NCBI GenBank assembly: GCA_963826535.1
Contig: CAWGXL010000011.1
Span: forward strand, 448,809 to 512,808
Reading direction: 5' to 3'
Length of the DNA stretch: 64,000 nucleotides
Source: an uncultured bacterium
GTDB taxonomy: Bacteria; Patescibacteriota; Microgenomatia; Levybacterales; UBA12049
Shown here one piece after another: positions 2,265 through 53,829 of this stretch (position 1 is its first letter; every line of letters starts with the position of its first letter). The notes beneath the pieces are model-generated. The model ran no database searches. It was given only the letters and a program-made list of their open reading frames with translations, and was not told where the DNA came from. Position numbers and translations under genes: made by a program.

Positions 2265-3173
2265 ATGACATTTCTTGAGAAATACGAACTATTGAAAAAA
2301 TCGGTTCCTGTTCCGGCTGTGTTTGCGCCATATAGTATAAACTCTGAATATGCAGATAATAATATGAGAGGTAAGAATTGTTATTACTGCTTTGATGGGT
2401 ATTATTATGAAAATTGTATGTATACTGGCATTGGCGCGTACAACAAATGGATTGTAGATTGTATACAGATGGAATTATCTGAAAAATGTTATGAGACTAT
2501 AGATAGCACCAGATGTTATGGTTCTTCCTATTTGATAGAGTGCAATAGTTGTAATGATTGTCATTTTTCCGCCTTTTTAAACTCTTGTGCTGACTGTTTC
2601 GGTTGCGTGGGTTTAACTCACAAAAAATACTGTGTTTTTAATAAGCAATACAGCAAAGAAGAATATTTTAAAAAGGTTGAAGAATTAAAAAAAGAAAAGC
2701 CGGAAAAGATACTGGCCCAAATGCTTGAACTAAAACAAACCGTTCCGCATCCAGCAAGTCAGCAGTCAAATAATGAGAATTGCCCGTATGGTAATAATAT
2801 ACATGATTCAAAAAATTGTTTTTGGGCTTTCAATATATATTATTTTGACAATTGCGGCTATGTTTTTAACGGATCGTACGCAAGGAATTGTTGGGACTCA
2901 TATCTATTTGGGGGGAACCCCGGGATAAAAACTGTCTCAGAATTATGTTATCAGCAGGTATATACGGAAACTTGTTACAACTGCGCTTTTTTAATCTACT
3001 GTGAAAATTGCACAAATTGTCATTACAGCTCATATCTCAGAAGCTGCACTGATTGTTTCGGTTGTGTTGGCCTGACAAAGAAAAAATACTGCATCTTGAA
3101 TAACCAACTGACCAAAGATCAATATGAAAAAGCTTTGAAAGAGATCAAAAGGGAGTTGGGGTGGAAGTTTTAG
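2265..3173 (+). CDS. Cys-rich CxxC-repeat protein, paralog 3
   Basis: Start moved to the conserved MTFLEKYELLKK. The upstream extension of the track ORF overlaps vapC. Ends KRELGWKF. Confidence 0.65.
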   Translation: MTFLEKYELLKKSVPVPAVFAPYSINSEYADNNMRGKNCYYCFDGYYYENCMYTGIGAYNKWIVDCIQMELSEKCYETIDSTRCYGSSYLIECNSCNDCHFSAFLNSCADCFGCVGLTHKKYCVFNKQYSKEEYFKKVEELKKEKPEKILAQMLELKQTVPHPASQQSNNENCPYGNNIHDSKNCFWAFNIYYFDNCGYVFNGSYARNCWDSYLFGGNPGIKTVSELCYQQVYTETCYNCAFLIYCENCTNCHYSSYLRSCTDCFGCVGLTKKKYCILNNQLTKDQYEKALKEIKRELGWKF

Positions 3174-4184: not shown

Positions 4185-4835
4185 ATGAAACTAATAGTGG
4201 GACTCGGCAATCCGGGGGAGAAGTATAAGAATACCCGGCATAATCTGGGTTTTAAGACTGTAAATCGATTCATGCAGGATTTTGAGACTGTGCAAAAGAC
4301 TGAATGGACGAAGAGCGTGAAGTTGAAAAGCAATATTGTGGATCTTGACTGGCAGCCGAAGACAGGACCTATGGAACATGTAATCCTTGCAAAACCATCG
4401 ACGTATATGAATAATTCCGGTATGGCGGTTCAACTTATTTCGGCATACTATAAAATTAATCCCGGGGATATTTGGATTGTGTATGATGAGTTGGATCTGC
4501 CAATTGGCTCAATGCGAATCCGTTTAGGCGGAGCGGCTGCAGGACATCGCGGAGTGGAGTCAATTATTGAAAGTTTAGGGACTGACCGTTTTTGGAGGTT
4601 CCGGATGGGAATTGGAACTGAGCATCCTCATTCGGGACGAAGAGCACGGGAAGACGGGAAAGTGCATAAGAATAGTAAACAATTTTTAGGTGATGTTAAT
4701 GATTATGTCCTTAGTCCATTTGGTCAAGAGAATAATAATAAAGCCCGAGAGCTTATCAAGCATGCATCAGATGCCATTTCCGAAGCTTTGGAAAAGGGGC
4801 TCGAGAAGGCGATGAACCGGTATAATACGAAGTGA
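4185..4835 (+). CDS. pth: peptidyl-tRNA hydrolase with C-terminal extension
   Basis: GLGNPG..Y..TRHNLGF N-terminal signature of Pth. TGA stop. About 40 extra C-terminal residues. Confidence 0.85.
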   Translation: MKLIVGLGNPGEKYKNTRHNLGFKTVNRFMQDFETVQKTEWTKSVKLKSNIVDLDWQPKTGPMEHVILAKPSTYMNNSGMAVQLISAYYKINPGDIWIVYDELDLPIGSMRIRLGGAAAGHRGVESIIESLGTDRFWRFRMGIGTEHPHSGRRAREDGKVHKNSKQFLGDVNDYVLSPFGQENNNKARELIKHASDAISEALEKGLEKAMNRYNTK

Positions 4836-4837
4836 AG

Positions 4838-4922
4838 AATAATTTTCAATTTTTAATTTTCAATTATCAATCAAATCTAAATTTTCAATTTATAAATGTT
4901 TAAAACATTGAAAATTGAGTAA
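4838..4922. repeat. AT-rich palindromic spacer element (TTGAAAATT/AATTTTCAA units), family copy
   Basis: Strong similarity to 53322-53422 (shared aatttttaattttcaat..caaat..taatgtttaaa..acatt) and to 53792-53829. Confidence 0.55.
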
Positions 4923-5258
4923 TTGAAAATTTTAAATTGTAAATTGAAATTTTTTATGCAGTCTGTGAAGCAGGTCCTCAAGAAATTTGATCCAATTAAG
5001 GATAAGTATGTTTCGCGTGAGTTTCAAACGTTTGGGTTGTATTTGTCGGAGCAATTAGATGATTATAAGCATAGAAGTCTTTATATAAAACTCTCAAAGA
5101 CGGTGCATAGGTCTATTTTGGAGAAGGCATTGTCATTCGTAGCAGATAGTAAAGCTGATAGTAAAGGAGCGTTATTTATGTGGAAGTTGAAAGAGCTACG
5201 GAAAAATTCAAAATCCAAAATTATCACTAGGATCCCTGTGGGGACAAATCACAAATAA
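4923..5258 (+). CDS. hypothetical protein (111 aa) bracketed by AT-rich palindromic elements
   Basis: ORF only. Both flanks are copies of the spacer element family. Confidence 0.35.
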   Translation: MKILNCKLKFFMQSVKQVLKKFDPIKDKYVSREFQTFGLYLSEQLDDYKHRSLYIKLSKTVHRSILEKALSFVADSKADSKGALFMWKLKELRKNSKSKIITRIPVGTNHK

Positions 5259-5359
5259 ATTCAAATATCAAAATTCTAAATTCAAAAAGTTTTGGATTTA
5301 ATTATTTGAATTTTGATATTATTTGGAATTTGGTGCTTTGAATTTGTAATTTAATTTCT
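5259..5359. repeat. AT-rich palindromic element, IVS-type copy
   Basis: Shares ttttgatatt..ttggaatttggtgctttgaatttg with the 23S IVS (24040-24100) and with 37110-37160. Confidence 0.6.
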
Positions 5360-5629
5360 ATGAAACAAGCGCATGTTTTTATATCCGGGTCGGTGCAAGG
5401 GGTTGGATATCGTTTTTTTGTTAAGAGTTGGGCTAAAACATATGGAATTGCCGGGTGGGTCGGTAATATACCTGACGGCCGGGTGGAAGGAGTTTTTCAG
5501 GGAGAGAGGCAGGCTATTGGTGAACTTATTACAAAGTGCCGAGAGGGTTCGTTTCTGGCGGAAGTTAAGGATATAGAGGTGAAATGGGAAGAAACTGAGG
5601 AGGAGTTTGGGGATTTTCAGGTTAGGTAG
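5360..5629 (+). CDS. acyP: acylphosphatase
   Basis: 89 aa. VQGVGYRFF and GWVGN..DGRVE signatures. Confidence 0.8.
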   Translation: MKQAHVFISGSVQGVGYRFFVKSWAKTYGIAGWVGNIPDGRVEGVFQGERQAIGELITKCREGSFLAEVKDIEVKWEETEEEFGDFQVR

Positions 5630-6124: not shown

Positions 6125-6200
6125 AGGAAAAGGATTATAGCAGTTGAGGTATAAATCTTCAAGCCTAGCTATTATTTTTTCACCTTTAGCAAAAATAATT

Positions 6201-6226
6201 TGTCATTCCCCTGGACAGGGGAATCT
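6201..6226. repeat. REP-like hairpin variant TTGTCATTCCCCTG-GA-CAGGGGAATC
   Basis: Perfect 9-bp stem. Shares the GTCATTCCC arm with the 6288-6314 hairpin and lies in inverted orientation about 60 bp from it. Confidence 0.5.
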
Positions 6227-6287
6227 AGAAGATATAAATAAATATTCCTTAATAGAGGATAAATGGAAAAAATTTATTTTACCTGCT

Positions 6288-6314
6288 GGATTCCCGCGTT
6301 CGCGGGAATGACAA
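6288..6314. repeat. hairpin repeat GGATTCCCGCG-TTC-GCGGGAATGACAA (family copy 1)
   Basis: Near-identical copies at 22201-22227 and 45966-45992. Confidence 0.6.
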
Positions 6315-9434: not shown

Positions 9435-9439
9435 CAGCG

Positions 9440-9630
9440 AGTAAATCCGAAGCACGAAATCCGAAATACGAAACAATATCAAATGACCAAAATACAAAAC
9501 GTTTTGGACATTTGGTATTTGAAGATTAGCCCCGCAAGGGGATCAAGAAATTTGTTTCGAATTTCTCCCGCAATCGTAGATACGGGATCCCGCTATTTTC
9601 ATAGTCGGGAGATATTCGAATTTCGGATTT
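9440..9630. repeat. AT-rich palindromic element copy in the trxA-trxB spacer
   Basis: cgaagcac..atatcaaa and caaaacgttttgg palindrome core shared with the 23S IVS start (23955-23975) and with 37095-37117. Confidence 0.45.
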
Positions 9631-9637
9631 TTTATTT

Positions 9638-12803: not shown

Positions 12804-14183
12804 ATGAACGTTGCTGAATTTTTATTGGAAAAAATAAAAACAAAAAAAATAATTGTTGGTATTGTTGGTTTAGGGTATGTTGGATCATACCTAGCAGCTC
12901 TCATTGTCAAAAAAGGTATAGAAACAATCGGATTTGATATCAGCCAAAAACGGGTTGATACTCTCAAGCTTCAAGGCAAGAAATTACTCAGGGCAACAAC
13001 AGATATGTCACTTTTGAGAGATTGTGATGTTATCCTTATTTGTGTACAAACGCCAGTTGATGAAAATAAGTTACCTGATCTTCGTTTCCTGATAGCAGCG
13101 ACGGAACAAACGGCTGCGTTTTTGCGGAAAGGTCAATTGGTTATTGTTGAAAGTTCGATTGCAACGGGAACAACAAGAAACGTAGTATTTCCATTATTAG
13201 AAAAGGTAGGTTTGGTTCATGGTTCAGACTATTTCCTGGCGTTTTCTCCTGAACGGGTTGATCCGGGGAATAAAAATTTTACGCTTGATCAAATACCAAA
13301 AGTGGTTTCCGGGTTGGATGGGTTGTCACTCCAATTAACTGTCGTTTTTTATGAACAAATTATGAAGCAGGTTGTACCTGTTACTTCGCTTGAGACTGCC
13401 GAGATGGTAAAGCTTGTTGAGAATACATTTCGTCTGGTAAATATTAGTTTGGTTAATGAACTTTCAGTTTATGCAAAAAGTTGGAATGTTGATATGTGGG
13501 AAGTTATAAAAGCCGCAGCGACCAAGCCATTTGGATTTATGCCGCATTACCCAAGTCCGGGTGTTGGCGGGCATTGTATTCCAATTGACCCTTTTTATCT
13601 TTTTGAGGACGCGAAAAAACGCGGGGTGTACTTGAGTTTAATTGATACAGCGGGAAAAATTAATGATGCACAACCTAAAAAAGTAGTACAAAGGGCAATC
13701 GAAATACTTAAAGGACAAAAAGTTTTTGATAAAAAACTTTCTGAAACCGGTGCCCGAATTTTGCGGATGTTTAGAATGAGGCCGGTATTGAATCTTGCAC
13801 AGCAGACTTTTCCCTTGGCGGGGCAAAAGGGAGGGAAGAGCTTAGCTGTACGCAAAAAGGGTAAGCATAATATCTTGTTAGTTGGTCTTTCTTATAAGCC
13901 GGATGTTGATGATGTACGAGAATCACCTGCCTTACATATCTGGAGAATGCTGGAAAAGTCGGGTTGTAGTGTAGCGTATCATGACCCTCACGTTCCATTG
14001 TATAAAGGTACAGCATCACAGTCATTAACTCCTGATGTACTTGATCAACAGGACCTGATTATTATTGTGACTAACCATAGTATGGTGGACTATGCAAAAT
14101 TAGCAAGTCAAGGCATACCGGTGCTTGATACACGGAATGCTTATTCTAATGGGTCAAAACAGCCCCATATTTACAGCTTATGA
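12804..14183 (+). CDS. nucleotide-sugar dehydrogenase (UDP-glucose/UDP-ManNAc dehydrogenase family)
   Basis: GIVGLGYVGS Rossmann motif and GGHCIPIDP catalytic Cys motif. Start moved to MNVAEF. Confidence 0.75.
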   Translation: MNVAEFLLEKIKTKKIIVGIVGLGYVGSYLAALIVKKGIETIGFDISQKRVDTLKLQGKKLLRATTDMSLLRDCDVILICVQTPVDENKLPDLRFLIAATEQTAAFLRKGQLVIVESSIATGTTRNVVFPLLEKVGLVHGSDYFLAFSPERVDPGNKNFTLDQIPKVVSGLDGLSLQLTVVFYEQIMKQVVPVTSLETAEMVKLVENTFRLVNISLVNELSVYAKSWNVDMWEVIKAAATKPFGFMPHYPSPGVGGHCIPIDPFYLFEDAKKRGVYLSLIDTAGKINDAQPKKVVQRAIEILKGQKVFDKKLSETGARILRMFRMRPVLNLAQQTFPLAGQKGGKSLAVRKKGKHNILLVGLSYKPDVDDVRESPALHIWRMLEKSGCSVAYHDPHVPLYKGTASQSLTPDVLDQQDLIIIVTNHSMVDYAKLASQGIPVLDTRNAYSNGSKQPHIYSL

Positions 14184-15118
14184 AATATACTTTAGTTACA
14201 GGCGGGGCAGGATTTATCGGAACCAATCTCTGCATAAAACTTCAAGAAATGGGTAAACAGGTTATTGCGGTTGATAATTTTATTACTTCTACAGGGCAGA
14301 ATTTGGCATCCATTAGTAATCCAAATTTTATTTTTGTAAAACATGATATTACTAAACCATTTCCTTCAAGAATCAAGAATCAAGAATTAAGAATTAAGGA
14401 GATATATCATTTGGCTTGTCCAACAGGTGTGCCCAACGTTACAAGACATTCTGAAGAAATGATCAGGACGTGTTCTGTAGGGACGATCAATGTTATGGAA
14501 CTTGCTAAGGAAAAAGGTGCAAAGGTGTTATTTACCAGTTCAAGTGAAGCTTATGGTGATCCCGAGGTGTTTCCGCAAGATGAAAGATACACCGGCAATG
14601 TCCATCCGACAGGCGTCCGGAGTCCGTATGAAGAAGGAAAACGTTTCTCAGAAAGTATTGTCATCATGTATGTTCGTAAATACAAAGCTGATGCAAAAAT
14701 CGTGCGTATTTTTAACACTTATGGTCCACATATGTCTTTAAAAGACAGCCGGGTTATTCCAAATTTTATCAAGCAAATATTAAACCACACACCACTTACA
14801 GTCCAGGGGGACGGAACACAGAAAAGAACTTTTTGTTATGTCGATGATCTGGTTGAAGGATTAATGATCGTTATGGATAAAGGCACAAGCGGTGAAGCGT
14901 ATAATCTCGGCAGTGACCAGGAAATTCAAATTAAAGATCTAGCAGTACTGATTCTTAAGCTAGCAGACGCCAAAAATACAACAGAGTTTGTCAAACGGCC
15001 AAAACACGATCATCAAGGGCGTCGTCCATCGCTGGAAAAAGCATCAAAGATTGGATGGAAAGAAAAAATAAACCTTGAGGATGGGTTGAGGAGGGCACTA
15101 GCATGGTATGGATTATAG
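14180..15118 (+). CDS. NAD-dependent epimerase/dehydratase, UDP-glucuronate decarboxylase (UXS)-like
   Basis: VTGGAGFIGTNL and S..YEEGKR catalytic region. 4-bp overlap with the upstream gene. Contains a heptamer tract at 14367-14398. Confidence 0.7.
   Translation: MKYTLVTGGAGFIGTNLCIKLQEMGKQVIAVDNFITSTGQNLASISNPNFIFVKHDITKPFPSRIKNQELRIKEIYHLACPTGVPNVTRHSEEMIRTCSVGTINVMELAKEKGAKVLFTSSSEAYGDPEVFPQDERYTGNVHPTGVRSPYEEGKRFSESIVIMYVRKYKADAKIVRIFNTYGPHMSLKDSRVIPNFIKQILNHTPLTVQGDGTQKRTFCYVDDLVEGLMIVMDKGTSGEAYNLGSDQEIQIKDLAVLILKLADAKNTTEFVKRPKHDHQGRRPSLEKASKIGWKEKINLEDGLRRALAWYGL
14367..14398 (+). repeat. (CAAGAAT)3(TAAGAAT) heptanucleotide tract inside a CDS
   Basis: Encodes ..SRIKNQELRIKE.. within the epimerase/dehydratase gene. 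Confidence 0.7.
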
Positions 15119-21960: not shown

Positions 21961-22200
21961 CTTTTTTATTTCGTTTAATCTACGCACAGTTTAACATAGG
22001 CGTTTATGTAGTCAAGATTCAGTTGTACATTATACATGAATTGGGTCTATTGACAGGTTTGAGGAGCGTATGATAATATAATTCCACGATTAAACAAAAG
22101 AGTCGTCTATGATAATGTTTGCAACTAACCTTTTAATTTCTAGTTATTCCGCAGATATTTAACGTCTTCTTTTGGTTTAATTTCATCTCATAAAATATAG

Positions 22201-22227
22201 ATTCCCGCCTTCGTGGGAATGACAATT
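22201..22227. repeat. hairpin repeat ATTCCCGCC-TTC-GTGGGAATGACAA (family copy 2)
   Basis: Matches 6288-6314 and 45966-45992. Confidence 0.55.
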
Positions 22228-22386: not shown

Positions 22387-22418
22387 AGCTTAGCTATTAG
22401 CTGTCAGCTATCAGCTTT
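22387..22418. repeat. ATTAGCT(N)TCAGC motif copy (tagctattagctgtcagctatcagc)
   Basis: Same motif at 27175-27200 and 42063-42097. Confidence 0.45.
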
Positions 22419-23191
22419 TGGATTTATGATTTTTTTGTCTGAAAGCAGAAAGCTAAGAGCTTAAAGCAAATTTTGCTTCGCAGTTTGAAGCAAGCCCCCT
22501 AGTTAGAGGGGGTTTTCTTCAAGCGTTGTGAGGCATGTCTTTTTACCCAAGGGTATGAGACAGGGTTTTTTGATTCTTGACTCCGATTTAAACGGAGTTG
22601 ACAGAACGAAAGGACTTAAAGCTTATCAATTGAGGTTCTTTGACAAGTGAAGAGAAGATCCCGCGTTTTGCTATCTGGCAAAATACGGGATTGTGGAAAT
22701 GTAAATATTTATTAATGCCAACAATGGATGCCTAGGAGATTCTGGCCGAGGAAGGACGCAGACGGCGGCGATACTCGTCGGGGAGGTGCCATCAACCTCT
22801 GATCCGGCGGTTTCCGAATGGAGCAATCCCTCCATCGCAAGATGGAGACCCTAGCGTAAAAATGGTTCGCAAGAATCATATAGCATTAGGGTGGGAACGG
22901 CGTGAACTGAAACATCTTAGTAACGCCAGGAAAAGACATCATATGAGATTCCCTTAGTAGCGGCGAGCGAAAGGGGAACAGCCTAAACTCCGATTTATCG
23001 GAGGGTTGCAGGGCAGACGATATTTGAGTGTTGCGAATAGCAGAAAGATCCGGAATGATCTTCCAAAGAAAGTGAAAGGCCTGTATGCGAAATTCAAAAC
23101 ACCGATAGTTTGTTCCTAAGTACCATGGAGCACGATTTAAACTCTGTGGGAATCCGGGTCGACCACGATCCAAGGCTAAATACCAGAATCT

Positions 23192-23924: not shown

Positions 23925-24112
23925 ACTCTTGTCCGGAGGACAAGGAATATCAAAATACGAAGCACAGGATTAAATTCAAAATCCAAAATTACAAATTCCA
24001 AATAATATCAAAATTCAAATAATAAAATTCAAAACATTTAGAATTTTGATATTTGGATTTATTTAGGATTTGGTGCTTTGATATTTGAATTTCTCGTCCT
24101 TTGGATGAGTTT
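23925..24112 (+). other. intervening sequence (IVS) hairpin in the 23S helix-45 region, ORF-less
   Basis: An AT-rich inverted repeat of about 150 nt replaces the helix between GCCGAAATC.. and ..GGTAGGGGAGCG (E. coli helix 45 position). Sequence-related to intergenic elements at 5259-5359 and 37060-37168. Confidence 0.6.
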
Positions 24113-24860: not shown

Positions 24861-25575
24861 GAATACAGTTTGTAGTTGTAAAAGTCGACTAAATGCTGGA
24901 ATACCCGGTTGTATATGTTGATACTTTGGTCTATTATAAATAGAATATGCCAGGTAACAATTCAACATTGAGCGTCAATGAGACGCACCGGACAATCAGC
25001 AGGAAAGACTTGAGCCGAGAAGAACTAGGATTTTTCCTAGCAGGATTTGTTGAAGGAGAAGGGAGTTTTAATGTTTCATTACGACGAAAATCAGACTATC
25101 AAGTAGGATGGCAAGTCGTTATGAGCTTTAATGTTTCTCAAAAAGATCCGACTTTGCTTTTTCAATTAAAAGAGCAATTAGGATGCGGGATAATTAAAGT
25201 ACGAAAGATTGATAAACTCTATTCATTTGATGTAACAAATCCTAAGGATATAATCCAAAGAGTTATTCCATATTTTCAAAAATATCCAGTTCTTTCTGTT
25301 TCTAAACAAAGAAACTTTTTTTTATTTTGTGCAATAGCATATTTAATGGAGAAAGGTGAACATAGAAATTTGATAGGACTTCGGAAAATCCTTGAACTTC
25401 GGGAGATAATTAACGAAGGAAAAGGACGAAAACGAAAATATGAAATAGCAGATGTTTTTCTTGCTTAAGAATCCTCAGAGACTATACGTCGACCCCCGAT
25501 TAAATCGGGGATGATATAGTCCGACCTCATGGGCGACCATGAGACTCTGTAATCAATCAGAGCTTGTAACAATGT
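24861..25575 (+). mobile_element. group I intron at 23S GTAACTAT site (E. coli about 1917) encoding a homing endonuclease
   Basis: Exon sequence stops after gtaactat (24860) and conserved exon text resumes later. Contains the LAGLIDADG ORF. Confidence 0.7.
24947..25468 (+). CDS. LAGLIDADG homing endonuclease (single-motif type)
   Basis: LAGFVEGEGSF motif. 173 aa. Located within the 23S intron. Confidence 0.8.
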   Translation: MPGNNSTLSVNETHRTISRKDLSREELGFFLAGFVEGEGSFNVSLRRKSDYQVGWQVVMSFNVSQKDPTLLFQLKEQLGCGIIKVRKIDKLYSFDVTNPKDIIQRVIPYFQKYPVLSVSKQRNFFLFCAIAYLMEKGEHRNLIGLRKILELREIINEGKGRKRKYEIADVFLA

Positions 25576-25590
25576 GAACTGTTCTAAGGT
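25576..25590 (+). other. putative 15-nt 23S micro-exon AACTGTTCTAAGGTA between two introns
   Basis: Matches E. coli 23S AACGGTCCTAAGGTA (13/15). Flanked by intron-like sequence on both sides. Confidence 0.4.
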
Positions 25591-25842
25591 AACCAACTTC
25601 GTTGCCCTAGGAGTCAGTGTTTTAGTAATCCAACTATTTGCTGGAAAGACTCAGAATCCGACAATACCTGCAGAGGTAATAATTTGTTCGGTGGAGTTGA
25701 TCAGCAGGGAAGATCCCGATTAAATCGGGAAACCCTCAGAGACTATACGTTGGACCCCGATAAAATCGGGGAAGATATAGTCCGAACTCTATAGCGATAT
25801 AGAGAAATATAGATTACAAGGGTCTATAGATTAACATATTGA
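25591..25842 (+). mobile_element. second ORF-less group I intron (about position 1931), 3' region homologous to the first intron
   Basis: A 57-nt block CCTCAGAGACTATACGT..CCCGAT(T/A)AAATCGGGGA.GATATAGTCCGA.CTC occurs at 25472-25528 and 25733-25790. Exon resumes at GCGAAGTTCCTTGTCGGG. Confidence 0.45.
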
Positions 25843-26390: not shown

Positions 26391-26728
26391 TAAGTAACAT
26401 TGGGGCGCCTATAGAGCAATCTGTAAGTCTGGTTATTCAATAACGCATTTAGAGAGTGCGGTGAATAAAAATACTAGTCAAAATCGGTGAATACCATTGA
26501 TATGAACAATTAATGGTTAATACCGAGGTTCTGTAAAGCAGAATGATCTTTATGATACTGCTGGCAGCACCGTATCGACTTTTATGTTCAGTTAATATGG
26601 GCATAAAGAGAAGGGGCTTTTGTTCCCGATTTAACGGGGCAAAAAATTATAGTCCTTCTAAAACACTAGCTCCTTTAGCAATAGAGGATGAAGGTATAGT
26701 CAACGCGTTTGGTAACAAACGAATAGAG
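26391..26728 (+). mobile_element. ORF-less intron at 23S position about 2449 (between GGCACCT and CGATGTCGGCTCATCACATCC)
   Basis: A 338-nt non-rRNA insertion between two perfectly conserved exon blocks. Confidence 0.55.
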
Positions 26729-27000: not shown

Positions 27001-27174
27001 GTCTCCAAGATTAGATCTCGATCCCCGATTTATCGGGGGAAAGACCCTGGGAGACTACCAGGTTGATAGGCGGGCGGTGGAAGCTTCGTAAGGAGTTAAG
27101 CTTACCCGTACTAATGGTCGAGGAGTATTTTTTTTCCTATTCTCTTCACTTTTCAAGGAACTTGAATTAGCTTT

Positions 27175-27200
27175 CAGCTGTCAGCAATTAGATATATTGA
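27175..27200. repeat. ATTAGCTTTCAGCTGTCAGC motif copy between 23S and 5S
   Basis: See 22387-22418 and 42063-42097. Confidence 0.45.
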
Positions 27201-34448: not shown

Positions 34449-35537
34449 ATGAAAATAAAACTTCAAGTAAATAAACCTGCGGGCGCGATGGCGCGACTTC
34501 TAGCATCGCATAAAGATTCGTTTATTTCACTAAAAAAAGGAGAGTCAGTTAAAGGGAAAATTACTAAGTTGACAGCATCTGAGATATTGGTTGATGTTGG
34601 CGCGAAGACAGAGGCGGTCGTCCTTGAGAAGGATAAGGCTATTTTGCATACGCTTCTTTCGGTATTTAAGAGTGGAGAAACAGTGGAAGTGCTTGTTCTA
34701 ACTCCCGAATCGGAAACGGGGCAGCCAATTGTTTCTTTGAGGCGGTATTTGGGTAATATTGCCTGGAAGAAGCTAGAGAAACTCATTGAAAGCCGCGAGC
34801 CGATCGAGGTTACGGTGAGTGATATAGGCAAAGCCGGCTACATTGTATCAACATCTTTTGGTATTTCAGGATTTTTGCCTCAATCGCATGTATCTTTTAC
34901 AGGAAGCCAAGCTATATCTTTTGGAGATACTCTTTCTGTGACAGTGCTTGAATTGAATCGGGAAGAGCGCAAAATCATTTTTTCACAGAAACCGTCTTTT
35001 ACAGACGAAGATTTTACGCAACTTATTGCAAAGTTTAAACCAGAACAGAAGGTTAAGGTTCACGTTACTAATGTTGCCTCTTTTGGTATGTTTGTTTCTT
35101 TACCGGTTGACGGCAGCACCATTCCCCTTGAGGGGTTTATACATATATCAGAGGCTTCTTGGGAAAGACAAGCGGAGTTAGGTAATTTGTTTACTACCGG
35201 ACAGCAGATTGAGGCGGTTATTCTCAAATTTGATAAGGATGCTAAGAAAGTGCAATTGTCTATTAAACGACTAACTAAAGATCCATTTGACTCGGTAATG
35301 GCAAAATATCCTATTGATAAGAAGATTACCGGTACTGTGGCAAAGGTCGATGAAGGAGGAATTGGCGTCGATATAGGTGAAGGAGTTGAGGGATTTATAA
35401 GACGTGAGAAGATTCCTCCGACAGTTACTTATGCTGTTGGACAGAAGCTTACTGTTTTGGTATCAGAGTACGATAAAAAGCGAAAAAGAATTTTTGTTGC
35501 GCCAGTTCTTCTTGAGAAACCGATTGGATATAGGTAG
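34449..35537 (+). CDS. rpsA: 30S ribosomal protein S1, short 4-domain form
   Basis: Four S1 (OB-fold) repeats, e.g. GESVKGKITKLTASEILVDVG, KVKVHVTNVASFGMFVSL, KITGTVAKVDEGGIGVDIGEGVEGFI. Confidence 0.7.
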   Translation: MKIKLQVNKPAGAMARLLASHKDSFISLKKGESVKGKITKLTASEILVDVGAKTEAVVLEKDKAILHTLLSVFKSGETVEVLVLTPESETGQPIVSLRRYLGNIAWKKLEKLIESREPIEVTVSDIGKAGYIVSTSFGISGFLPQSHVSFTGSQAISFGDTLSVTVLELNREERKIIFSQKPSFTDEDFTQLIAKFKPEQKVKVHVTNVASFGMFVSLPVDGSTIPLEGFIHISEASWERQAELGNLFTTGQQIEAVILKFDKDAKKVQLSIKRLTKDPFDSVMAKYPIDKKITGTVAKVDEGGIGVDIGEGVEGFIRREKIPPTVTYAVGQKLTVLVSEYDKKRKRIFVAPVLLEKPIGYR

Positions 35538-35658
35538 TATGTATCATGTAGTACGTATTATGTATACACAATTTCTCACGCATACTACATAATACATTCT
35601 ACTTACTACAGTTTCTGTTCAGCTTCATTTTTTTTCTGCCTAAGCGTATAATAAGATT

Positions 35659-37074
35659 ATGCCAAAGAATAAAACCGTAATAAATTTTGTATGCCAGGAG
35701 TGCGGTTATGATAGTCCTTCCTGGCTTGGTAAATGTCCAGAATGCGGAAGTTGGAACTCTCTCAAGGAGTTCAAAGTTCAAAGTTCAAAGTTCAAAGTTG
35801 ACCAAGGAGGTATTAGTAAGGGGCAGTCGGCAAAACCTCAAAGATTAAGAGAAATTGTGTATGAAGAAAAGCTGAGGATTCAAACTGAATATTCTGAGTT
35901 GAATACTGTTTTAGGTGGAGGAATTGTGAGGGGTTCTGTTACTCTTATGGCAGGCGACCCCGGAGTAGGTAAGTCGACACTTTTGCTTCAGTTGTGTTTG
36001 TCGCTCGCCAAGCAGGGGAAGAAAGTGCTTTATGTGTCGGGCGAGGAATCTGAGGAACAAATTAAGATGCGGGCTGAGCGGATTATGGCCAACAGCAAAG
36101 GCCGAATGGAGAAAAGAAATAATAAGTTGGATGAAAATTTGTATTTGGTATCGCTAACAGATTCGGATGCAATAGTGGAAGTAATTATTAAGGCAAAGCC
36201 TGATTTAGTGATTATTGATTCGATACAGACGATTGAGTCACAAAATGTATCAGGATTGTCTGGTTCGGTTGCACAAGTTCGCTATGGAGCATTGCAGTTT
36301 GTGCGCTGTGCAAAGCAGAATTCTATACCAATTATAATTGTAGGGCACGTAACGAAGGAAGGGATGGTTGCCGGGCCGATGATTTTGTCACACATGGTAG
36401 ATACGGTACTTTTCCTTGAAGGAGAAAGATTTACTGAGACAAGAATTTTGAGGTCGCTTAAAAACCGATTTGGTCCGGTTGACGAAGTTGGGATATTTCT
36501 TATGACCGATTCCGGAATGAATGAGGCAACTAATCCGGAGCAACTTTTTCTAAATTCCAATACCGCGTCAAATGCGGCTACGCCAGGAAGCGTTCTTGTT
36601 GTGACTTTAGAGGGGTCGAGAGCTTTTCTGGTTGAGATACAGGCACTTGTTGTCAGGTCAGGACTGCCAATGCCCCGTAGGGTGGTTTCAGGATGTGATC
36701 CTCGACGGGTTGAGCTCTTATTGGCGGTGCTGCAAAAGCATTTACGACTTCCATTGGACACACTGGATGTTTTTGTTAATATTGCCGGGGGATTAAGACT
36801 TTCTGATCCGGGCGCGGATTTAGGTGTATGTTTGGCCGTATTTTCAAGTTTTTCAAATGTTTCACTTAATGGGGTTGTTGGAATTGCGGAGGTTGGATTA
36901 CTAGGGGAATTGAGGGTGATTCCCGGACTTGAAAAGAGAATTCGCGAAGCGGGAAAACTGGGATTAAAAAAAATAATATCGGCAAAAACACATAAGACAC
37001 TGAGAGAAGTAATAGAATCATTAAACAAACCAGAGATTAAAAATTCAAAATTCAAAGCATCAAATTCCAAATAA
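35659..37074 (+). CDS. radA: DNA repair protein RadA/Sms
   Basis: N-terminal C4 zinc finger CQECG..CPECGSW, Walker A GDPGVGKSTLLLQ, KNRFG motif, C-terminal Lon-like domain. Contains an (AGTTCAA)4 tract. Confidence 0.85.
   Translation: MPKNKTVINFVCQECGYDSPSWLGKCPECGSWNSLKEFKVQSSKFKVDQGGISKGQSAKPQRLREIVYEEKLRIQTEYSELNTVLGGGIVRGSVTLMAGDPGVGKSTLLLQLCLSLAKQGKKVLYVSGEESEEQIKMRAERIMANSKGRMEKRNNKLDENLYLVSLTDSDAIVEVIIKAKPDLVIIDSIQTIESQNVSGLSGSVAQVRYGALQFVRCAKQNSIPIIIVGHVTKEGMVAGPMILSHMVDTVLFLEGERFTETRILRSLKNRFGPVDEVGIFLMTDSGMNEATNPEQLFLNSNTASNAATPGSVLVVTLEGSRAFLVEIQALVVRSGLPMPRRVVSGCDPRRVELLLAVLQKHLRLPLDTLDVFVNIAGGLRLSDPGADLGVCLAVFSSFSNVSLNGVVGIAEVGLLGELRVIPGLEKRIREAGKLGLKKIISAKTHKTLREVIESLNKPEIKNSKFKASNSK
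35768..35795 (+). repeat. (AGTTCAA)x4 heptanucleotide tandem repeat inside radA, encoding FKVQSSKFKV
   Basis: Read directly from the sequence. Same AGTTCAAAG unit as in the intergenic spacers at 44385, 48350 and 53340. Confidence 0.8.
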
Positions 37075-37168
37075 TATCAAAATACAAATAATAAAATCCA
37101 AAACGTGTTTTGATATTTGAAATTTGATATTTGAATTTATTTGGAATTTGTAATTTTGGATTTTAGAT
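37060..37168. repeat. AT-rich palindromic element, IVS-type copy (radA-yacL spacer)
   Basis: ccaaataatatcaaaatacaaataataaaatccaaaac / gttttgatatttgaaatttgatatttgaatttatttgg inverted repeat. Near-identical left arm in the 23S IVS. Confidence 0.6.
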
Positions 37169-37177
37169 TTGACTAAT

Positions 37178-38063: not shown

Positions 38064-38783
38064 GATCCGCTCCTCTTCTATGAAGAGGTAAGAGTACCTG
38101 CCCTATACTCCTACCTCATCATAAATGACGAGCAGTCCTGCTGAGTTTGATGCAAAATCTTCGTGAAAAGTCTTGATCTGTCAAATAGAAAATTTAATTT
38201 CAGCCTCAGCTTTTTTCTTGACAATACCTACTTGCTTGTTGTATTTTACTTATAAGCACTTAGTTTTATTCCTGCCTGAAGAACTAATTGCTGTTTACCT
38301 TAAGAGCATTGCTTCTCGTACTAGAACTTATCATTTGAGTAACGAAAGCGATGCTCTTTTTTGGATTCGAATGTATCCGAATTACAATACTCCGAATTCA
38401 TCCGAATAAAGATTCTTCTTGCAATTTTAAAGAACAGCGATTGGGATTTGTAATCCAAGTTCCTGTAATTTCTTAAATTGTTGTCTGCCTGTTTGAATTA
38501 ATGCTTCCCTTTTGCCTGAGTCAGTCTGTGGGTTACGATCAAGTCCGAGTGGTTGGATCCTTTTTTTATTTAAGTTCCGATTGAATCCGGTTAAGCCTAA
38601 TAGAGAGATGAACAGTTTCATAGATTATCTGAATAATAACACATCTTTTTTAATATGTCAACCTATAATAAGTAATACAAATAATATCATATGTCCTAGA
38701 GTATATAATAAGTTGATTGGATTGTAAATTCAAGGTAATTTTTAAAACTTAAATTATGTGGATAACTTTGGGATATGAATAAG

Positions 38784-42062: not shown

Positions 42063-42097
42063 ATTAGCTTTCAGCTTTTTGCTATTAGCTATCAGAT
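42063..42097. repeat. ATTAGCTTTCAGC...ATTAGCTATCAGA motif copy downstream of rho
   Basis: See 22387-22418 and 27175-27200. Confidence 0.45.
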
Positions 42098-42298
42098 TTC
42101 AACTGCTTAATTTCTGCTTCGCGATTACCCACTTAATTTGACTTTTGATGCTGAATTTGTTAATTTAGAGGCTGGAGAAAGATGAGAAAAGATATTAGAG
42201 CTTTTATTTCTTTTTTTGTTTATTATAGTTGCCGGAAAATAATGCGTTTTTCCGTGCGTTTTGAAAAGAATAAGAATTACTTAGTTAAATTTTTTATA

Positions 42299-43270: not shown

Positions 43271-43344
43271 AAAAATTGATTTTTTAATTTAGTAATTTAT
43301 GCTAATATATAATTGATTGTTAAATTGTATTTATAGATCATAAT

Positions 43345-43875
43345 ATGAGTGATTCTAAAAGAAGAGTAGGGAATAACGAAGTAACACCGGCATCAAAAGA
43401 AACGGGGGCTGGGTTTGATTCAAAAAGGGCGGTTGGTCTAGAGACCGGTTTGTTCAAAAGCTTTAAAAACGCAGGCAATAAAAATATGAATCGATTCGTA
43501 GCTGCGTTTACACTGGGTACGGTGTTGACTTTTGGCTTGTATGGTGATTCAAATAACGAGCAAGATAAGCAGGGGTTGGCGCAATCCGGATCAGGCATGA
43601 GTCTTGAACAGAAAGGTGGTAATGTAAAAGAAAATCTGAGGAGGTTTGGACTAAAAGGCGTGGATGACAATATGGCATCTTCACTTGTAAAGCAGGGAAT
43701 TATCGATGAAGATGAGGCGGCAAAATATGCTAGGGAAAATGATGGAAAAGCTAATGGTAATGTAAAAGAAAGTCTTAGGAAATTTGGACTACAAGGCGTG
43801 GATGATAACACGGTTAACTCTCTAGTAAAGCAAGGTATTCTTGATGAAGAAGCGACGACAAAATATGCTGAATAG
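43345..43875 (+). CDS. secreted protein with two about 45-aa internal repeats (probable true start 43486, MNRFVAAF signal peptide)
   Basis: Repeats GNVKE(N/S)LR(R/K)FGL(K/Q)GVDDN..SLVKQGI(I/L)DE..KYA. Signal peptide at the internal Met. Confidence 0.45.
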   Translation: MSDSKRRVGNNEVTPASKETGAGFDSKRAVGLETGLFKSFKNAGNKNMNRFVAAFTLGTVLTFGLYGDSNNEQDKQGLAQSGSGMSLEQKGGNVKENLRRFGLKGVDDNMASSLVKQGIIDEDEAAKYARENDGKANGNVKESLRKFGLQGVDDNTVNSLVKQGILDEEATTKYAE

Positions 43876-43916
43876 CCGATAAATAATAATGGGAGGTGAG
43901 TAAAATTTGATCGACT

Positions 43917-44201
43917 ATGGAAACTAATTTTCAGAAAATTCAAAAATTAATATCTAGTTCTGATTTGACTGCAGAAGAGCAGGATAAATTTCTTGAACTT
44001 CTATTGAGGACTACAGATGAAGAGCTTAAGCCGCTAGCGGAACTTTTTGCTGAGGATTCCAATTGGATAAGAAAAATCTGTGATAATTATAAAGCAAAAC
44101 AGGCTGTTTTTGCAGCTAAAGATAATGCTGCATGGGAAGAAGTGTTGAAAGGGGAAGATAATTTATTTCAGGAATTGATGAAAGATGAAATAGCCCAATA
44201 G
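43917..44201 (+). CDS. hypothetical acidic helical protein
   Basis: 94-aa ORF. Confidence 0.35.
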   Translation: METNFQKIQKLISSSDLTAEEQDKFLELLLRTTDEELKPLAELFAEDSNWIRKICDNYKAKQAVFAAKDNAAWEEVLKGEDNLFQELMKDEIAQ

Positions 44202-44367: not shown

Positions 44368-44473
44368 CAAAGTAAGTTAAAAGTTTAAAGTGCAAAGTTC
44401 AAAATTATAGATTAAAAGTTTAAAAAATTAAATTTAACTTTGTATTTTGAACTTTGAATTTTTAAGTTAGCTT
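44368..44473. repeat. AT-rich palindromic spacer (caaagttcaaaat...attttgaactttg) between two tRNA-Ala genes
   Basis: Inverted repeat of AGTTCAAA units. Same unit family as the spacers at 48340-48417 and 53322-53422. Confidence 0.5.
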
Positions 44474-44857: not shown

Positions 44858-45154
44858 GTGGCAGAACTTCAAGATATAACTCTTAATTGTAAAGACTGCG
44901 GGCAAAGTTTTGTTTGGACAGTTGACGAACAAGAGTTTTACAGACAAAAGAATTTTAGCGCTCCTTTAAGATGCAAGAATTGTCGTGCACAGGCTCGAGC
45001 CCGATTTAATGGCGGGGGAAACGCAGGAGGCGCAAGGCAATCTTTTCCAATAACTTGCGCTAATTGCGGTGCACAAGATACTGTACCTTTCCAACCAAGA
45101 GGCGATAGGCCGGTTCTTTGTAGAAATTGTTTTAGGAAGGGAGATAATAAATAA
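44858..45154 (+). CDS. tandem zinc-ribbon protein (2x CxxC-x15-CxxC), Gly/Arg-rich linker
   Basis: CKDCG..x15..CKNC and CANCG..x15..CRNC. 98 aa. Preceded by an about 260-nt GC-rich structured leader. Confidence 0.55.
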   Translation: MAELQDITLNCKDCGQSFVWTVDEQEFYRQKNFSAPLRCKNCRAQARARFNGGGNAGGARQSFPITCANCGAQDTVPFQPRGDRPVLCRNCFRKGDNK

Positions 45155-45286
45155 ATCTCAAATCGCAAAGCTCAAATCTCAAAACTACAAATCAAAACTT
45201 AAAACGACTGAATATTGTGAGTATCTTGTGCGTGAGAGTTGAGATATTGATTAAGTCTGAGTAGGTATGTTAATTACTTTGGACAT

Positions 45287-45784: not shown

Positions 45785-45965
45785 ACTAGTCTCTTGCCCA
45801 GTCTTAACTAATCAAATAAAGAGGGCAAGAGAAGACTCTGTTTTATTCATTTAAATATAATAAAGAAGTTTAATTTTATATTTATATATCTTTTGCTATA
45901 GTTGCCTATTCATTTATGTTTATTTGTTCGTTTTTTAACGATAAGGAAATTTGTTTATACCTACT

Positions 45966-45992
45966 GGATTCCCGCCTCCGCGGGAATGACAA
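45966..45992. repeat. hairpin repeat GGATTCCCGCC-TCC-GCGGGAATGACAA (family copy 3)
   Basis: Matches 6288-6314 and 22201-22227. Lies just 3' of the stop of the minus-strand gene 46011-48257. Confidence 0.55.
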
Positions 45993-48257: not shown

Positions 48258-48417
48258 GGATATCTAATAACTTTAACAATTTTTTCTATATATTGTCAAG
48301 TTAGAAAAATCTTGAGCCTAAGGGGCGGGAGGTAGCAAATTAGTTCAAAGATCAAAGTTAAAAGTTGCAGATAAGAGATCAAAGTTTGTTTTTGCCTTTT
48401 AAAGTTGCGATACTTGA
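48258..48417. repeat. AT-rich spacer with AGTTCAAAG units downstream of the four-helix-bundle gene
   Basis: agttcaaagatcaaagttaaaagttgc...agatcaaagtttg. Confidence 0.4.
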
Positions 48418-48750
48418 TCAGACTATCTTTGCAAGCTCTTCTCTTTCTTTTAATAAAGTATTAATTTCTGTGATAAGTTCTCTATCCAAATCTCTTGCTA
48501 ATGCCAACCAGAATTTTGTCTCATTGGCACTCTTAAGAGCATGATTGAGATAGTTTATAAAGTCTTTTTTACTTGACGCTGCCTGTGCTTCTATGATATT
48601 TGCGCCAATTGAAGTTACTGCTCTGAGTAATTGATCAGATATTACCCGAGCAGATCTTTTTTGAGGAAACTTATCCATCAATTTAAGTACTTGACGAGAG
48701 TGTTGAAAAGCTCTGTGTATAAGTTGTTTTCTAAATTCGTGATTATTCAT
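48418..48750 (-). CDS. four-helix-bundle protein (23S rRNA IVS protein / DGR Avd family)
   Basis: 110 aa. SIGANIIEAQAASSKKDFINYLNHALKSANETKFWLALARDL matches the family signature GANIAEG..R.S.KDF..FL.IA.GS..E..Y.L.LA.DL. Confidence 0.7.
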   Translation of the reverse strand: MNNHEFRKQLIHRAFQHSRQVLKLMDKFPQKRSARVISDQLLRAVTSIGANIIEAQAASSKKDFINYLNHALKSANETKFWLALARDLDRELITEINTLLKEREELAKIV

Positions 48751-48800
48751 AATTTTACGCTTTTAACTTTAACTTTGCATTTTGCACTTTGGATTTTGAA
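48751..48800. repeat. AT-rich spacer (ttttaactttaactttgcattttgcactttggattttgaac) between giant gene 1 and the 4HB gene
   Basis: Same TTTGAA/CAAAG unit family. Confidence 0.4.
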
Positions 48801-53321: not shown

Positions 53322-53422
53322 ATTAGTTCAAAGTTCAAAGTATAAAATAATTTTCAATTCGAAATTTTTAATTTTCAATCAAATATTAATGTTTAAATAT
53401 TAAAATTTAAAAACATTTATAA
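53322..53422. repeat. AT-rich palindromic spacer element between giant gene 1 and 4HB gene 2
   Basis: Homologous to 4838-4922. Contains agttcaaagttcaaag. Confidence 0.55.
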
Positions 53423-53791
53423 TTATAATGTATTACTTGCAATTTTAGAAAAAATTAAGGTAAGTTCGTGTGCTTCCTGCCACAATATTCTATATTCTTC
53501 TTTTCCTTCATCTGTTGCTTTTGCTAAAATTCGGAGCCAGTATTTTGTTTCTTTTGATTCTTTTTTACAGATAAAAATTTTATTTTTAAAATCTTTTTTG
53601 CTACTTGCACCATTGGCCTCACAGTAATTTGCTCCCATACTGGTACCTGATCGCACTAGTTGGCCAATAATGGGTCTGGTAACGTCATTTTTAGGCGCTT
53701 TTTTGCAAAGCTCTATAATCTTTTCACTAAACAATGCTGTTCTTTCTTCTAAATCATACTTTCCGCTTTGTTTATTTGTAATTTTATTCAT
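53423..53791 (-). CDS. four-helix-bundle protein (23S rRNA IVS protein / Avd family), second copy
   Basis: 122 aa. SGTSMGANYCEANGASSKKDFKNKIFICKKESKETKYWLRILAKA carries the same signature. Confidence 0.65.
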   Translation of the reverse strand: MNKITNKQSGKYDLEERTALFSEKIIELCKKAPKNDVTRPIIGQLVRSGTSMGANYCEANGASSKKDFKNKIFICKKESKETKYWLRILAKATDEGKEEYRILWQEAHELTLIFSKIASNTL

Positions 53792-53829
53792 TGTGATTTA
53801 ATTGAAAATTTCAAATTGAAAATTGTAAA
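53792..53829. repeat. AT-rich spacer (ttgaaaatttcaaattgaaaattgtaaatt) between giant gene 2 stop and the 4HB gene 2 start
   Basis: Similar to 4896-4922. Confidence 0.45.

Follow-up and report, generated by a model that had tools for sequence, protein, structure and literature searches.

Heptamer-array hairpin cassettes in a Patescibacteria genome: a probable selfish family of the intervening-sequence type

Short tandemly repeated repetitive (STRR) heptanucleotide sequences were reportedly described in cyanobacteria by Mazel et al. in 1990, and an STRR inside RNase P RNA is said to have been found by Vioque in 1997. Other bacterial genomes contain TAACTGA heptamer repeats (PMC4679880), the GGGAATC repeats of Xanthomonas, which often form inverted or convergent pairs (PMC4692102), and the 4-5x heptamers of Geobacter (PMC2700814). 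Intervening sequences (IVSs) in helix 45 of the 23S rRNA of Salmonella, Leptospira and Coxiella, which may or may not hold an S23p/4HB ORF, are excised by RNase III, which leaves a fragmented 23S rRNA; the helix-45 IVS of Coxiella contains an S23p open reading frame (ORF), has two to three copies of GACAGAT upstream, variable between strains, and is an RNase III substrate (PMC4990558). How rRNA IVSs arose and what they do has been an open question since 1990, and the cyanobacterial and other heptamer repeats have remained unexplained equally long. In our literature searches, which included these four papers, heptamer repeats were nowhere linked to IVSs or to the genes of four-helix-bundle (4HB) proteins. 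Here we describe inverted-repeat modules made of heptamer arrays in a 64,000-nt stretch of DNA (the window) of contig CAWGXL010000011.1, from the genome of an uncultured member of the Patescibacteria.

The window has a G+C content of ~38%. A group I intron interrupts its 4.4-kb 23S rRNA gene, and the window also carries a gene for 5S rRNA and three for tRNA-Ala; the nearest relatives of its RadA protein are those of Levybacteria/Microgenomates-type Patescibacteria, at no more than 78% identity. The interest of the modules lies in the occurrence of one sequence family at the 23S helix-45 IVS site, in tRNA and mRNA spacers and in the flanks of 4HB genes. Together with the recurrence of 4HB genes and inverted heptamers across phyla, this brings rRNA IVSs and the unexplained heptamer repeats into contact and makes one testable hypothesis out of three separate curiosities. 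The reading we favour, to which we give a probability of roughly 0.7, is that the modules form a superfamily of heptamer-array hairpin cassettes, a selfish family of the IVS type with ORF-less derivatives.

Period-7 modules and the helix-45 copy

When sliding 28-nt segments were scored for self-identity of at least 0.7 at lags 1 to 21, 109 of them reached this value at lag 7, against 18 or fewer at every other lag; period 7 is the sole periodicity enriched in the window. Tandem Repeats Finder places period-7 arrays at 20 or more sites. As in heptanucleotide simple sequence repeats (SSRs), a 7-nt unit is repeated in tandem at least three times, mainly in intergenic sequence. The 5' arm of a module consists of three to eight such units and the 3' arm is the reverse-complement array; the arms either abut, so that an ORF-less hairpin of 85-150 nt results, or lie on either side of a 4HB gene, which encodes a '23S rRNA intervening-sequence protein' (TIGR02436/PF05635) of ~115-125 aa.

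A preliminary description of this DNA had listed AT-rich repeat modules in eleven intervals, and arrays of 7-nt units are present in 11/11. It had further considered the modules homologous far above chance, which applies to the two pairs it named. Expressed as z against dinucleotide shuffles, the similarity of 4838-4922 to 53322-53422 is z=8.4, and the likeness of 5300-5350 to 24050-24100 corresponds to z=28.7 between the module at 5259 and that in the 23S rRNA gene. The homology is not uniform, however: only 22 of the 105 module pairs exceed z=4, and the modules therefore represent separate subfamilies, within which those at 5259, 23925 and 37060 resemble one another with z=19-29. At least four subfamilies share one architecture, and not, as had been proposed, a single family built from AGTTCAAA units; this sequence has 13 matches in the window where 4 are expected, none of them within the originally flagged span 4838-5359. 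Subfamily A (CAAAT-type; units such as AAATTCA, CAAATAA core) is found at 5243-5360, 9439-9633, 23945-24092 and 37030-37172, subfamily T (AATTTTC-type) at 4833-4965 and 53345-53847, subfamily B (AGTTCAA or AAGTTTA) at 44369-44473, 48330-48806 and 53322-53344 and in the radA array 35768-35799, and subfamily D (AGCT-type; TTAGCTA or TCAGCTG) at 22389-22470, 27165-27200 and 42063-42100, while the E and F types have one example each (35531-35610 and 45149-45205, respectively).

Type-A modules can be recognized with a profile made from 14 foreign hairpins and including no window sequence. This profile matches four sites, 5243-5360 (E 2e-24), 37030-37165 (E 1.4e-23), 23969-24087 (E 3.5e-22) and 9439-9565 (E 2.7e-12); other sites of the window reach only E>=0.07 and the locally shuffled window gives nothing below E 4.9. 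Three of the window copies align over ~120 nt, with 79% mean column identity, with the radA-PIN spacer of the relative L001, and type-A copies share ~120 nt of non-periodic order beyond the unit itself. The first copy, A1 (5243-5360, no strand assigned), is an ORF-less hairpin (fold z=-3.8) between a resident ORF, of which its 5' arm supplies the final codons and TAA stop, and an acylphosphatase gene; its similarity to the 23S and radA-PIN copies is z=28, and a type-A module lies in the same spacer of the relative L016 (Levybacteria). The hairpin A3 (37030-37172, + strand; fold z=-5.7) is located between radA and a PIN/TRAM gene, and RadA receives its last ~12 residues and its TAA stop from the 5' arm. 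Another type-A relative, A4 (9439-9633, + strand), lies between trxA and trxB (Pfam assignments) and has nested G+C-rich hairpins in its 3' arm (~9531-9612).

The remaining copy, A2 (23945-24092, + strand), lies within the 23S rRNA gene, where the whole insertion covers ~23927-24110. In a global alignment with E. coli rrlH it adds 99+29 nt between E. coli positions ~1160 and 1185, which is helix 45, and its flanks GCCGAAATCGGAG and TTTGGTAGGGGAGCG match E. coli on both sides of that helix. The insertion replaces the tip of the helix (E. coli ~1164-1185) and forms a long stem from complementary termini; the RNA fold has a minimum free energy of -35.4 kcal/mol (z=-5.8), and none of 200 shuffles is as stable. 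The 23S copy therefore has the position and shape of a classical IVS.

Type-A sequence extends well beyond the window. Among GTDB species representatives, 31 contigs contain the exact 22-mer AAATTCCAAATAATATCAAAAT, 29 of them within heptamer arrays, and the lineages mentioned in the contig titles are those of Patescibacteria, Desulfobacteraceae and other "delta proteobacteria", Omnitrophota, Nitrospiraceae, Dehalococcoidales and gammaproteobacterial metagenome-assembled genomes. In six other genomes the 22-mer stands directly at the 3' end of a 4HB gene, the gene abutting the array. The modules remain at 32-36% G+C even in loci or hosts of 50-57% G+C. A consensus RNA structure of 16 type-A copies contains only conserved core pairs and no compensatory changes, a covariation test that is uninformative because the 5' arm sequences had been selected by exact match.

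Low-complexity, AT-rich spacers may resemble each other by chance, and the spacers concerned have only 12-30% G+C. Several listed module pairs do score no better than shuffles, and several hairpin folds are marginal (z -0.1 to -1.3). Against chance stand similarities of up to z=29, a lag-7 excess unique among the lags and strong matches to the foreign profiles with clean shuffled controls. The copies of subfamilies A, T and B exceed their shuffles, which refutes chance likeness for these three, and we regard it as a negligible explanation of the modules. Rfam has no match to the modules at gathering threshold in a scan of the window, nor any at E<=1 over 4780-5420. Neither a sigma-70-like promoter on the gene-sense (+) strand nor a terminator-like site is present in the modules at 4833-5360 and 37030-37172, and a role as promoter or intrinsic terminator was rejected on this ground. 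Copies inside 23S rRNA and between tRNAs also speak against terminators.

Gene-bearing cassettes and their ORF-less copies

The preliminary description had suggested that both 4HB genes of the window belong to small cargo-carrying elements, and our analysis agrees: each lies between complementary arms, and in the predicted cofold a stem encloses the ORF, with the 5' arm, the ATG and the first codons paired to the region right after the stop. In cassette 1 (B-type; 48330-48806, - strand), the 5' arm 48751-48806 and the 3' arm 48330-48417 border a 4HB ORF at 48418-48750 that scores 79.7 bits with PF05635 and 89.4 bits with TIGR02436, above the respective cut-offs of 33.8 and 24 bits. Cassette 2 (T-type; 53322-53850, - strand) consists of a 5' arm (53792-53847), a 4HB ORF (53423-53791; PF05635 57.7 bits, TIGR02436 75.1 bits, both likewise above cut-off) and a 3' arm (53345-53422), and a short B-type array at 53322-53344 adjoins the next gene. 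Its predicted cofold sequesters the ATG; gene-bearing forms have their start codon within the stem. Profiles made from the arms of 18 foreign T-type cassettes, taken from metagenome 4HB loci, match both arms of cassette 2 (E 2e-8 to 8e-6). The same part of the window (48801-63606, - strand) holds two giant ORFs, one of 1506 aa with six Laminin_G_3 domains and one of 3258 aa without a Pfam match, which contain 132-nt tandem repeats and have ~50% G+C as against ~38% in the rest of the window; a 4HB cassette follows each.

Two ORF-less modules correspond to these cassettes. The T-type hairpin T1 (AATTTTC / GAAAATT; 4833-4965, + strand; fold z=-3.0) fills the spacer from the stop of pth (4835) to the ATG of the resident ORF (4956). 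It equals the 5' arm and 3' region of cassette 2 minus the ORF, to which it aligns end to end with 81% identity (score 109.5; shuffles have a mean of 56 and a maximum of 81). The T-type arm profiles match its two parts, 4833-4902 and 4902-4965 (E 8e-8 to 5e-6), and within the window they match only T1 and cassette 2. The B-type hairpin B1 (44369-44473, + strand; fold z=-3.9) fills the spacer from tRNA-Ala(CGC) to tRNA-Ala(GGC) and is 79-83% identical to the arms of cassette 1 (score 61-75; shuffle mean 22).

Orthologous loci of the related genomes L016 and L001 are empty at some module sites and have kept the module at others. The ORF 4923-5258, previously proposed as a further cargo gene, is flanked by two self-contained palindromes of different subfamilies. 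It is a resident gene beside which a hairpin was inserted, since L016 has the same gene order, pth / ORF / type-A hairpin / acylphosphatase, but pth and the ORF lie only 3 nt apart, as against the 120-nt module of the window. Similarly, the L001 spacer orthologous to the D-type site 42063-42100 measures 15 nt as against 119 nt in the window, whereas the radA-PIN hairpin is kept in L001, with a 94-nt spacer in both. The preliminary description had advised looking for empty sites and for target-site duplications; the former exist in L016 and L001, and none of the latter were found.

Small, palindromic, multi-copy intergenic sequences with presence/absence differences, and with ORF-less and ORF-bearing forms that share the same arms, recall MITEs (miniature inverted-repeat transposable elements), i.e., deletion derivatives of a DNA transposon that are moved in trans by a transposase recognising their terminal inverted repeats. 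Four type-A copies and the empty sites agree with this. The sole enclosed ORF, however, encodes a ~120-aa 4HB protein without a transposase domain, the genes scanned beside modules and cassettes include no transposase (they encode TPR or lectin-like domains or have no Pfam match), neither target-site duplications nor a transposase-encoding relative were found, and in place of unique terminal repeats the arms consist of tandem arrays. We hold conventional MITEs to be very improbable.

The same layout was followed in 80 metagenome 4HB loci, which were chosen as the best matches to a protein alignment derived from the candidate phyla radiation and are therefore a biased sample of the protein family. 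By eye, an array precedes and its complement follows most of the listed genes, with units that vary among loci (e.g., AATTTTC and CTAATTA, or ACGAATG in G+C-rich hosts). For 77 loci, the 120-nt flanks have a lag-7 identity of 0.37/0.40, and coding or distant sequence one of 0.27. The stringent threshold is passed by arrays in 49%/48% of 4HB flanks and in 3% of control segments, a 16-fold enrichment, and the complementarity of an arm to its own partner has a median score of 41, compared with 21 for non-self arms. The upstream neighbour shares the strand of the 4HB gene in 63/69 loci, and the median distance between its stop and the 4HB ATG is ~50 nt. No 23S gene contains any of the 80 loci.

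Plasmid-borne 4HB genes of cultured Cyanobacteria, Bacteroidota, Chloroflexota and Spirochaetota also have arrays, in 12/12 cases by eye and in 9/12 by the stringent measure on at least one side. A Nostoc punctiforme plasmid carries CAATTCG x4, the 4HB ORF and CGAATTG x4, and a Nostoc flagelliforme plasmid carries AATTCAA x4, the 4HB ORF and TTTTGAA x4; similar arrays accompany the plasmid 4HB genes of Planktothrix, Euhalothece, Gloeocapsa, Chlorohelix and Treponema, and cultured Bernardetia has the same combination of a 4HB gene with inverted heptamers. The plasmid cassettes often sit inside defence or transport operons (L114, L121, L117, L123, L125, L120), such as cas2|4HB|cas1 in Anabaena, 4HB|cas1 in Pseudanabaena, DUF1156|4HB|Swt1-HEPN in Gloeocapsa and Chlorohelix, drmD|4HB|MmeI in Planktothrix and RND adaptor|4HB|RND permease in Chondrinema.

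A pair of cassettes from two further loci, L028 and L031, is 80% identical from -51 to +50 around the ORF only; the neighbouring genes differ and the identity stops sharply at the outer edges of the arms. Among the cassettes, the similarity of the 4HB protein cores tracks that of the arms (rho 0.27, reached by 0/500 permutations). Cassettes are discrete units that occur in unrelated gene contexts and in many phyla, right after the stop of a co-oriented gene. Architecture, discreteness, location in helix 45, co-orientation with upstream genes and gain or loss between genomes are all directly observed.

Three other roles were considered for the 4HB genes and their arms and rejected. Translational read-in through 5' arms open in all frames is not supported by the density of stop trinucleotides, which is 0.103 upstream and 0.084 downstream. 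A context of diversity-generating retroelements (DGRs) is disfavoured by a score of 18.9 bits with the model of the accessory protein Avd (NF033474), whose cut-off is 80 bits, and the scan of neighbouring ORFs revealed no reverse transcriptase. Membership of defence systems was rejected as there were no PADLOC matches.

Persistence, spread and rival explanations

How an IVS-type selfish family might persist can be outlined as follows. The elements would be transcribed by read-through of host genes, for which the co-oriented upstream neighbours and the lack of promoter and terminator-like sites in the modules examined speak, and their arms are predicted to fold into a 40-70 bp AU-rich duplex that, by analogy with the published helix-45 IVSs, RNase III would probably cleave. 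Such a cut would remove the insert from the 23S rRNA and would separate flanking cistrons or tRNAs; insertion would therefore be cheap for the host and the element could persist as selfish DNA. Among arm mismatches, G·U and A·C are equally represented (112 vs 118 in cassettes, 45 vs 35 in hairpins), and the complementarity therefore looks like a property kept at the DNA level rather than one selected through RNA pairing; selection on RNA structure only was rejected, as this strand-specific wobble signature is missing. At the DNA level, complementarity might be maintained by slippage of 7-nt units together with template switching in the palindrome, or else reflect recent copying, and spread probably does not involve a conventional transposase.

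Several observations weigh against this reading. The hairpins of the radA-PIN and ORF-acylphosphatase spacers are conserved at orthologous sites though RadA is only 73% identical, and C-terminal tails encoded by arrays are widespread in RadA orthologs; both look like long-term residence or host function rather than active mobility. The missing G·U excess argues against strong selection on an RNA duplex, and the case for RNase III cleavage is drawn solely from published IVSs. Neither five ORF-less modules nor the L028 and L031 cassettes have target-site duplications at their edges, and no transposase or reverse transcriptase was found among the neighbouring ORFs, to which the scan was confined. 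The 22-mer AAATTCCAAATAATATCAAAAT is absent from viral contigs, on which ground phage was rejected as a vector. Only about half of the 4HB flanks reach the stringent periodicity threshold. Arm composition follows host G+C (rho 0.51), so the arms evolve in place. Finally, only period and position connect the arrays of types D, E and F with the family.

The hairpins kept at orthologous sites and the RadA tails would also fit host-owned operon punctuation, in which spacer hairpins are selected for RNA processing, mRNA stabilisation or translational coupling, like enterobacterial repetitive extragenic palindromic (REP) sequences, are inherited vertically and owe their similarity to a shared trans-acting factor. 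The modules fit exactly from a stop codon to the next ATG, the core ATTTATTTGNNATTTG is kept in the type-A 3' arm in 15-16 of 16 genomes (the 3' arm having been unused in locus selection), and the failure to find target-site duplications agrees with such a role. This explanation nevertheless has to contend with empty orthologous sites, with near-identical copies at unrelated loci, including a 23S helix and a tRNA spacer, and with a 22-mer that ranges from Patescibacteria to Nitrospirota and Desulfobacterota in modules AT-rich even where the host is not. Moreover, the cassettes bring their own gene, and the G·U excess is absent. We consider host punctuation unlikely.

Alternatively, arrays could arise in place by polymerase slippage, and palindromes by local template switching, with no identity as elements and no transfer. 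Heptamers dominate the long SSRs of bacteria, which have been attributed to polymerase slippage (cited in PMC4679880 and PMC4692102). Many different units coexist in one 64-kb window, the perfect units found at one and the same codon position of radA differ among orthologs, and arm composition tracks that of the host. Slippage on its own is quite unlikely in our view, as type-A copies share their non-periodic order and reach E 1e-24 with a foreign profile, T1 and B1 can be aligned with cassette arms from one end to the other, arrays are enriched specifically beside 4HB genes, and cassette identity ends abruptly at the outer arm edges.

The selfish-cassette reading can tentatively be taken further. 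The TIGR02436 4HB protein and its inverted heptamer arrays might constitute a widespread, previously unrecognised selfish cassette, in which a putative binding of the 4HB protein to the units of its own arms would promote formation, maintenance or spread; in that case a single system would have produced 23S rRNA IVSs, cyanobacterial STRRs, the TAACTGA and GGGAATC repeats and the ORF-less patescibacterial hairpins. We offer this as a possible but doubtful extension. Arrays commonly have ~4-5 units, and a solved homologue of the 4HB family, PDB 2RLD, was deposited with five chains, a coincidence that would suit binding to units. There is a practical side for annotation of Patescibacteria as well: arrays extend or interrupt real genes, as in RadA tails and linkers, and create spurious ORFs.

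Further arrays of the window and comparison with known systems

Arrays also occur in and around radA. An E-type heptamer hairpin (GTATCAT / GTAGTAC; 35531-35610, + strand; fold z=-3.9) lies between an S1-domain gene and radA, a spacer that in L001 contains different arrays and GGGAATGACA hairpins. Inside radA, where the preliminary description had noticed a heptamer unit, a perfect array, AGTTCAA x4.6 (35768-35799, + strand; 100% identity), runs in frame through the RadA linker after the zinc ribbon. RadA orthologs have other heptamer units at the same linker position, e.g., TCAAATC x4.7 in L001, and a second site as well; the perfect in-frame radA arrays of L001 are at 2613-2645 and 2999-3064. 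The in-frame radA array could be a switchable tract, because a change of one unit shifts the reading frame. Some of the RadA orthologs P0002, P0005, P0012, P0052 and P0105 carry peptides such as SLQRLQAGSSLRSS or SPLRQGFAGQA at this linker, suggesting that the coding sequence of this clade also receives insertions of another, G+C-rich repeat. A further array, TCAAGAA x4.7 (14366-14398; 96% matches), is in frame near the 5' end of a NAD-dependent sugar epimerase/dehydratase gene (14180-15118).

Two arrays have one side only. The F-type array (AAATCTC; 45149-45205, + strand) follows a zinc-finger gene and forms no significant hairpin (z=-0.1); this is the listed interval 45150-45200. A D-type array (42063-42100, + strand) lies after a 520-aa ORF, syntenic with a Rho-like gene of L001, and upstream of a LysM/M23 gene. 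Other D-type sequences (TTAGCTA / TCAGCTG) flank the 23S gene: an array pair with a weak fold (z=-1.3) in the tRNA-Ala to 23S spacer (22389-22470, + strand) is similar to 27165-27200 and 42063-42100 at z=5-8, and the array in the 23S to 5S spacer (27165-27200, + strand) is similar to 42063-42110 at z=8.0. D-type arrays were rejected as the main 23S processing stem, for which 22620-22657 paired with 27139-27165 is predicted. The 23S gene has three further, intron-type insertions, at E. coli positions 1917 (24861-25576, with a LAGLIDADG endonuclease ORF at 24947-25468), 1931 (25581-25841, an Rfam group I intron match) and 2500 (26391-26728, 338 nt, with an unannotated 105-aa ORF).

Repeats of other kinds are present too. 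A second dispersed hairpin family, ATTCCCGC-N4-GCGGGAATGACAA, occurs at 6200-6314, 22196-22225 and 45960-45992 of the window and at ~2290-2440 of L001; it fits the ATTCCC-N8-GGGAAT pattern of the Neisseria dRS3 repeats. The sequence GGGAATGACAA has four exact intergenic copies and five matches with at most one mismatch, where 1.4 are expected. In the spacer from the PIN/TRAM gene to a glycosyltransferase gene, a non-coding block of ~200 nt (~38160-38365) is strongly conserved with L001 (~5200-5400), ends in a stem followed by a T run and has no Rfam match at E<=1; it may be a small RNA gene. A 138-nt tandem repeat at 43617-43869 (1.8 copies, 81% matches) lies in the overlapping ORFs 43345-43875 (+) and 43338-43943 (-).

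The systems to which the modules can be compared include the DGR accessory protein Avd. It has distant sequence similarity to the 4HB proteins and belongs to the same fold class; as given above, its model scores far below cut-off and the neighbouring ORFs scanned contain no reverse transcriptase, while template and variable repeats were not looked for. Correia elements are RNase III substrates. Together with MITEs, REP sequences, bacterial interspersed mosaic elements (BIMEs), RUP and ERIC, they resemble the modules in being short, palindromic, multi-copy, intergenic and co-transcribed with their neighbours, and ORF-less forms in parallel to a longer, gene-bearing form are a further likeness. 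The modules differ from all of these by target-site duplications not having been found, by the lack of a detected transposase or RAYT partner and by arms that are arrays, the unit of which differs between subfamilies.

Helix-45 IVSs are among the closest known systems, with the bacterial heptanucleotide repeats and MITE/REP-type palindromes. The 23S copy of the window is in the same helix, its terminal inverted repeats form a long closing stem, its gene-bearing relatives encode a PF05635 protein, and the Coxiella IVS also has tandem heptamers. Unlike those IVSs, the rRNA copy of the window has no ORF, the stems are built from heptamer arrays, and most copies reside in mRNA and tRNA spacers; of the metagenome 4HB loci, 0/80 are located in 23S. 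With the heptanucleotide repeats of bacteria the modules share a 7-nt unit in 2-8 or more copies, a mostly intergenic location that is sometimes inside genes or structural RNAs, a patchy phylogenetic distribution, an unexplained origin and, in Xanthomonas, convergent pairs. In contrast to these repeats, the arrays of the window are paired complementary arms of a defined cassette, and one subfamily has a conserved non-periodic core.

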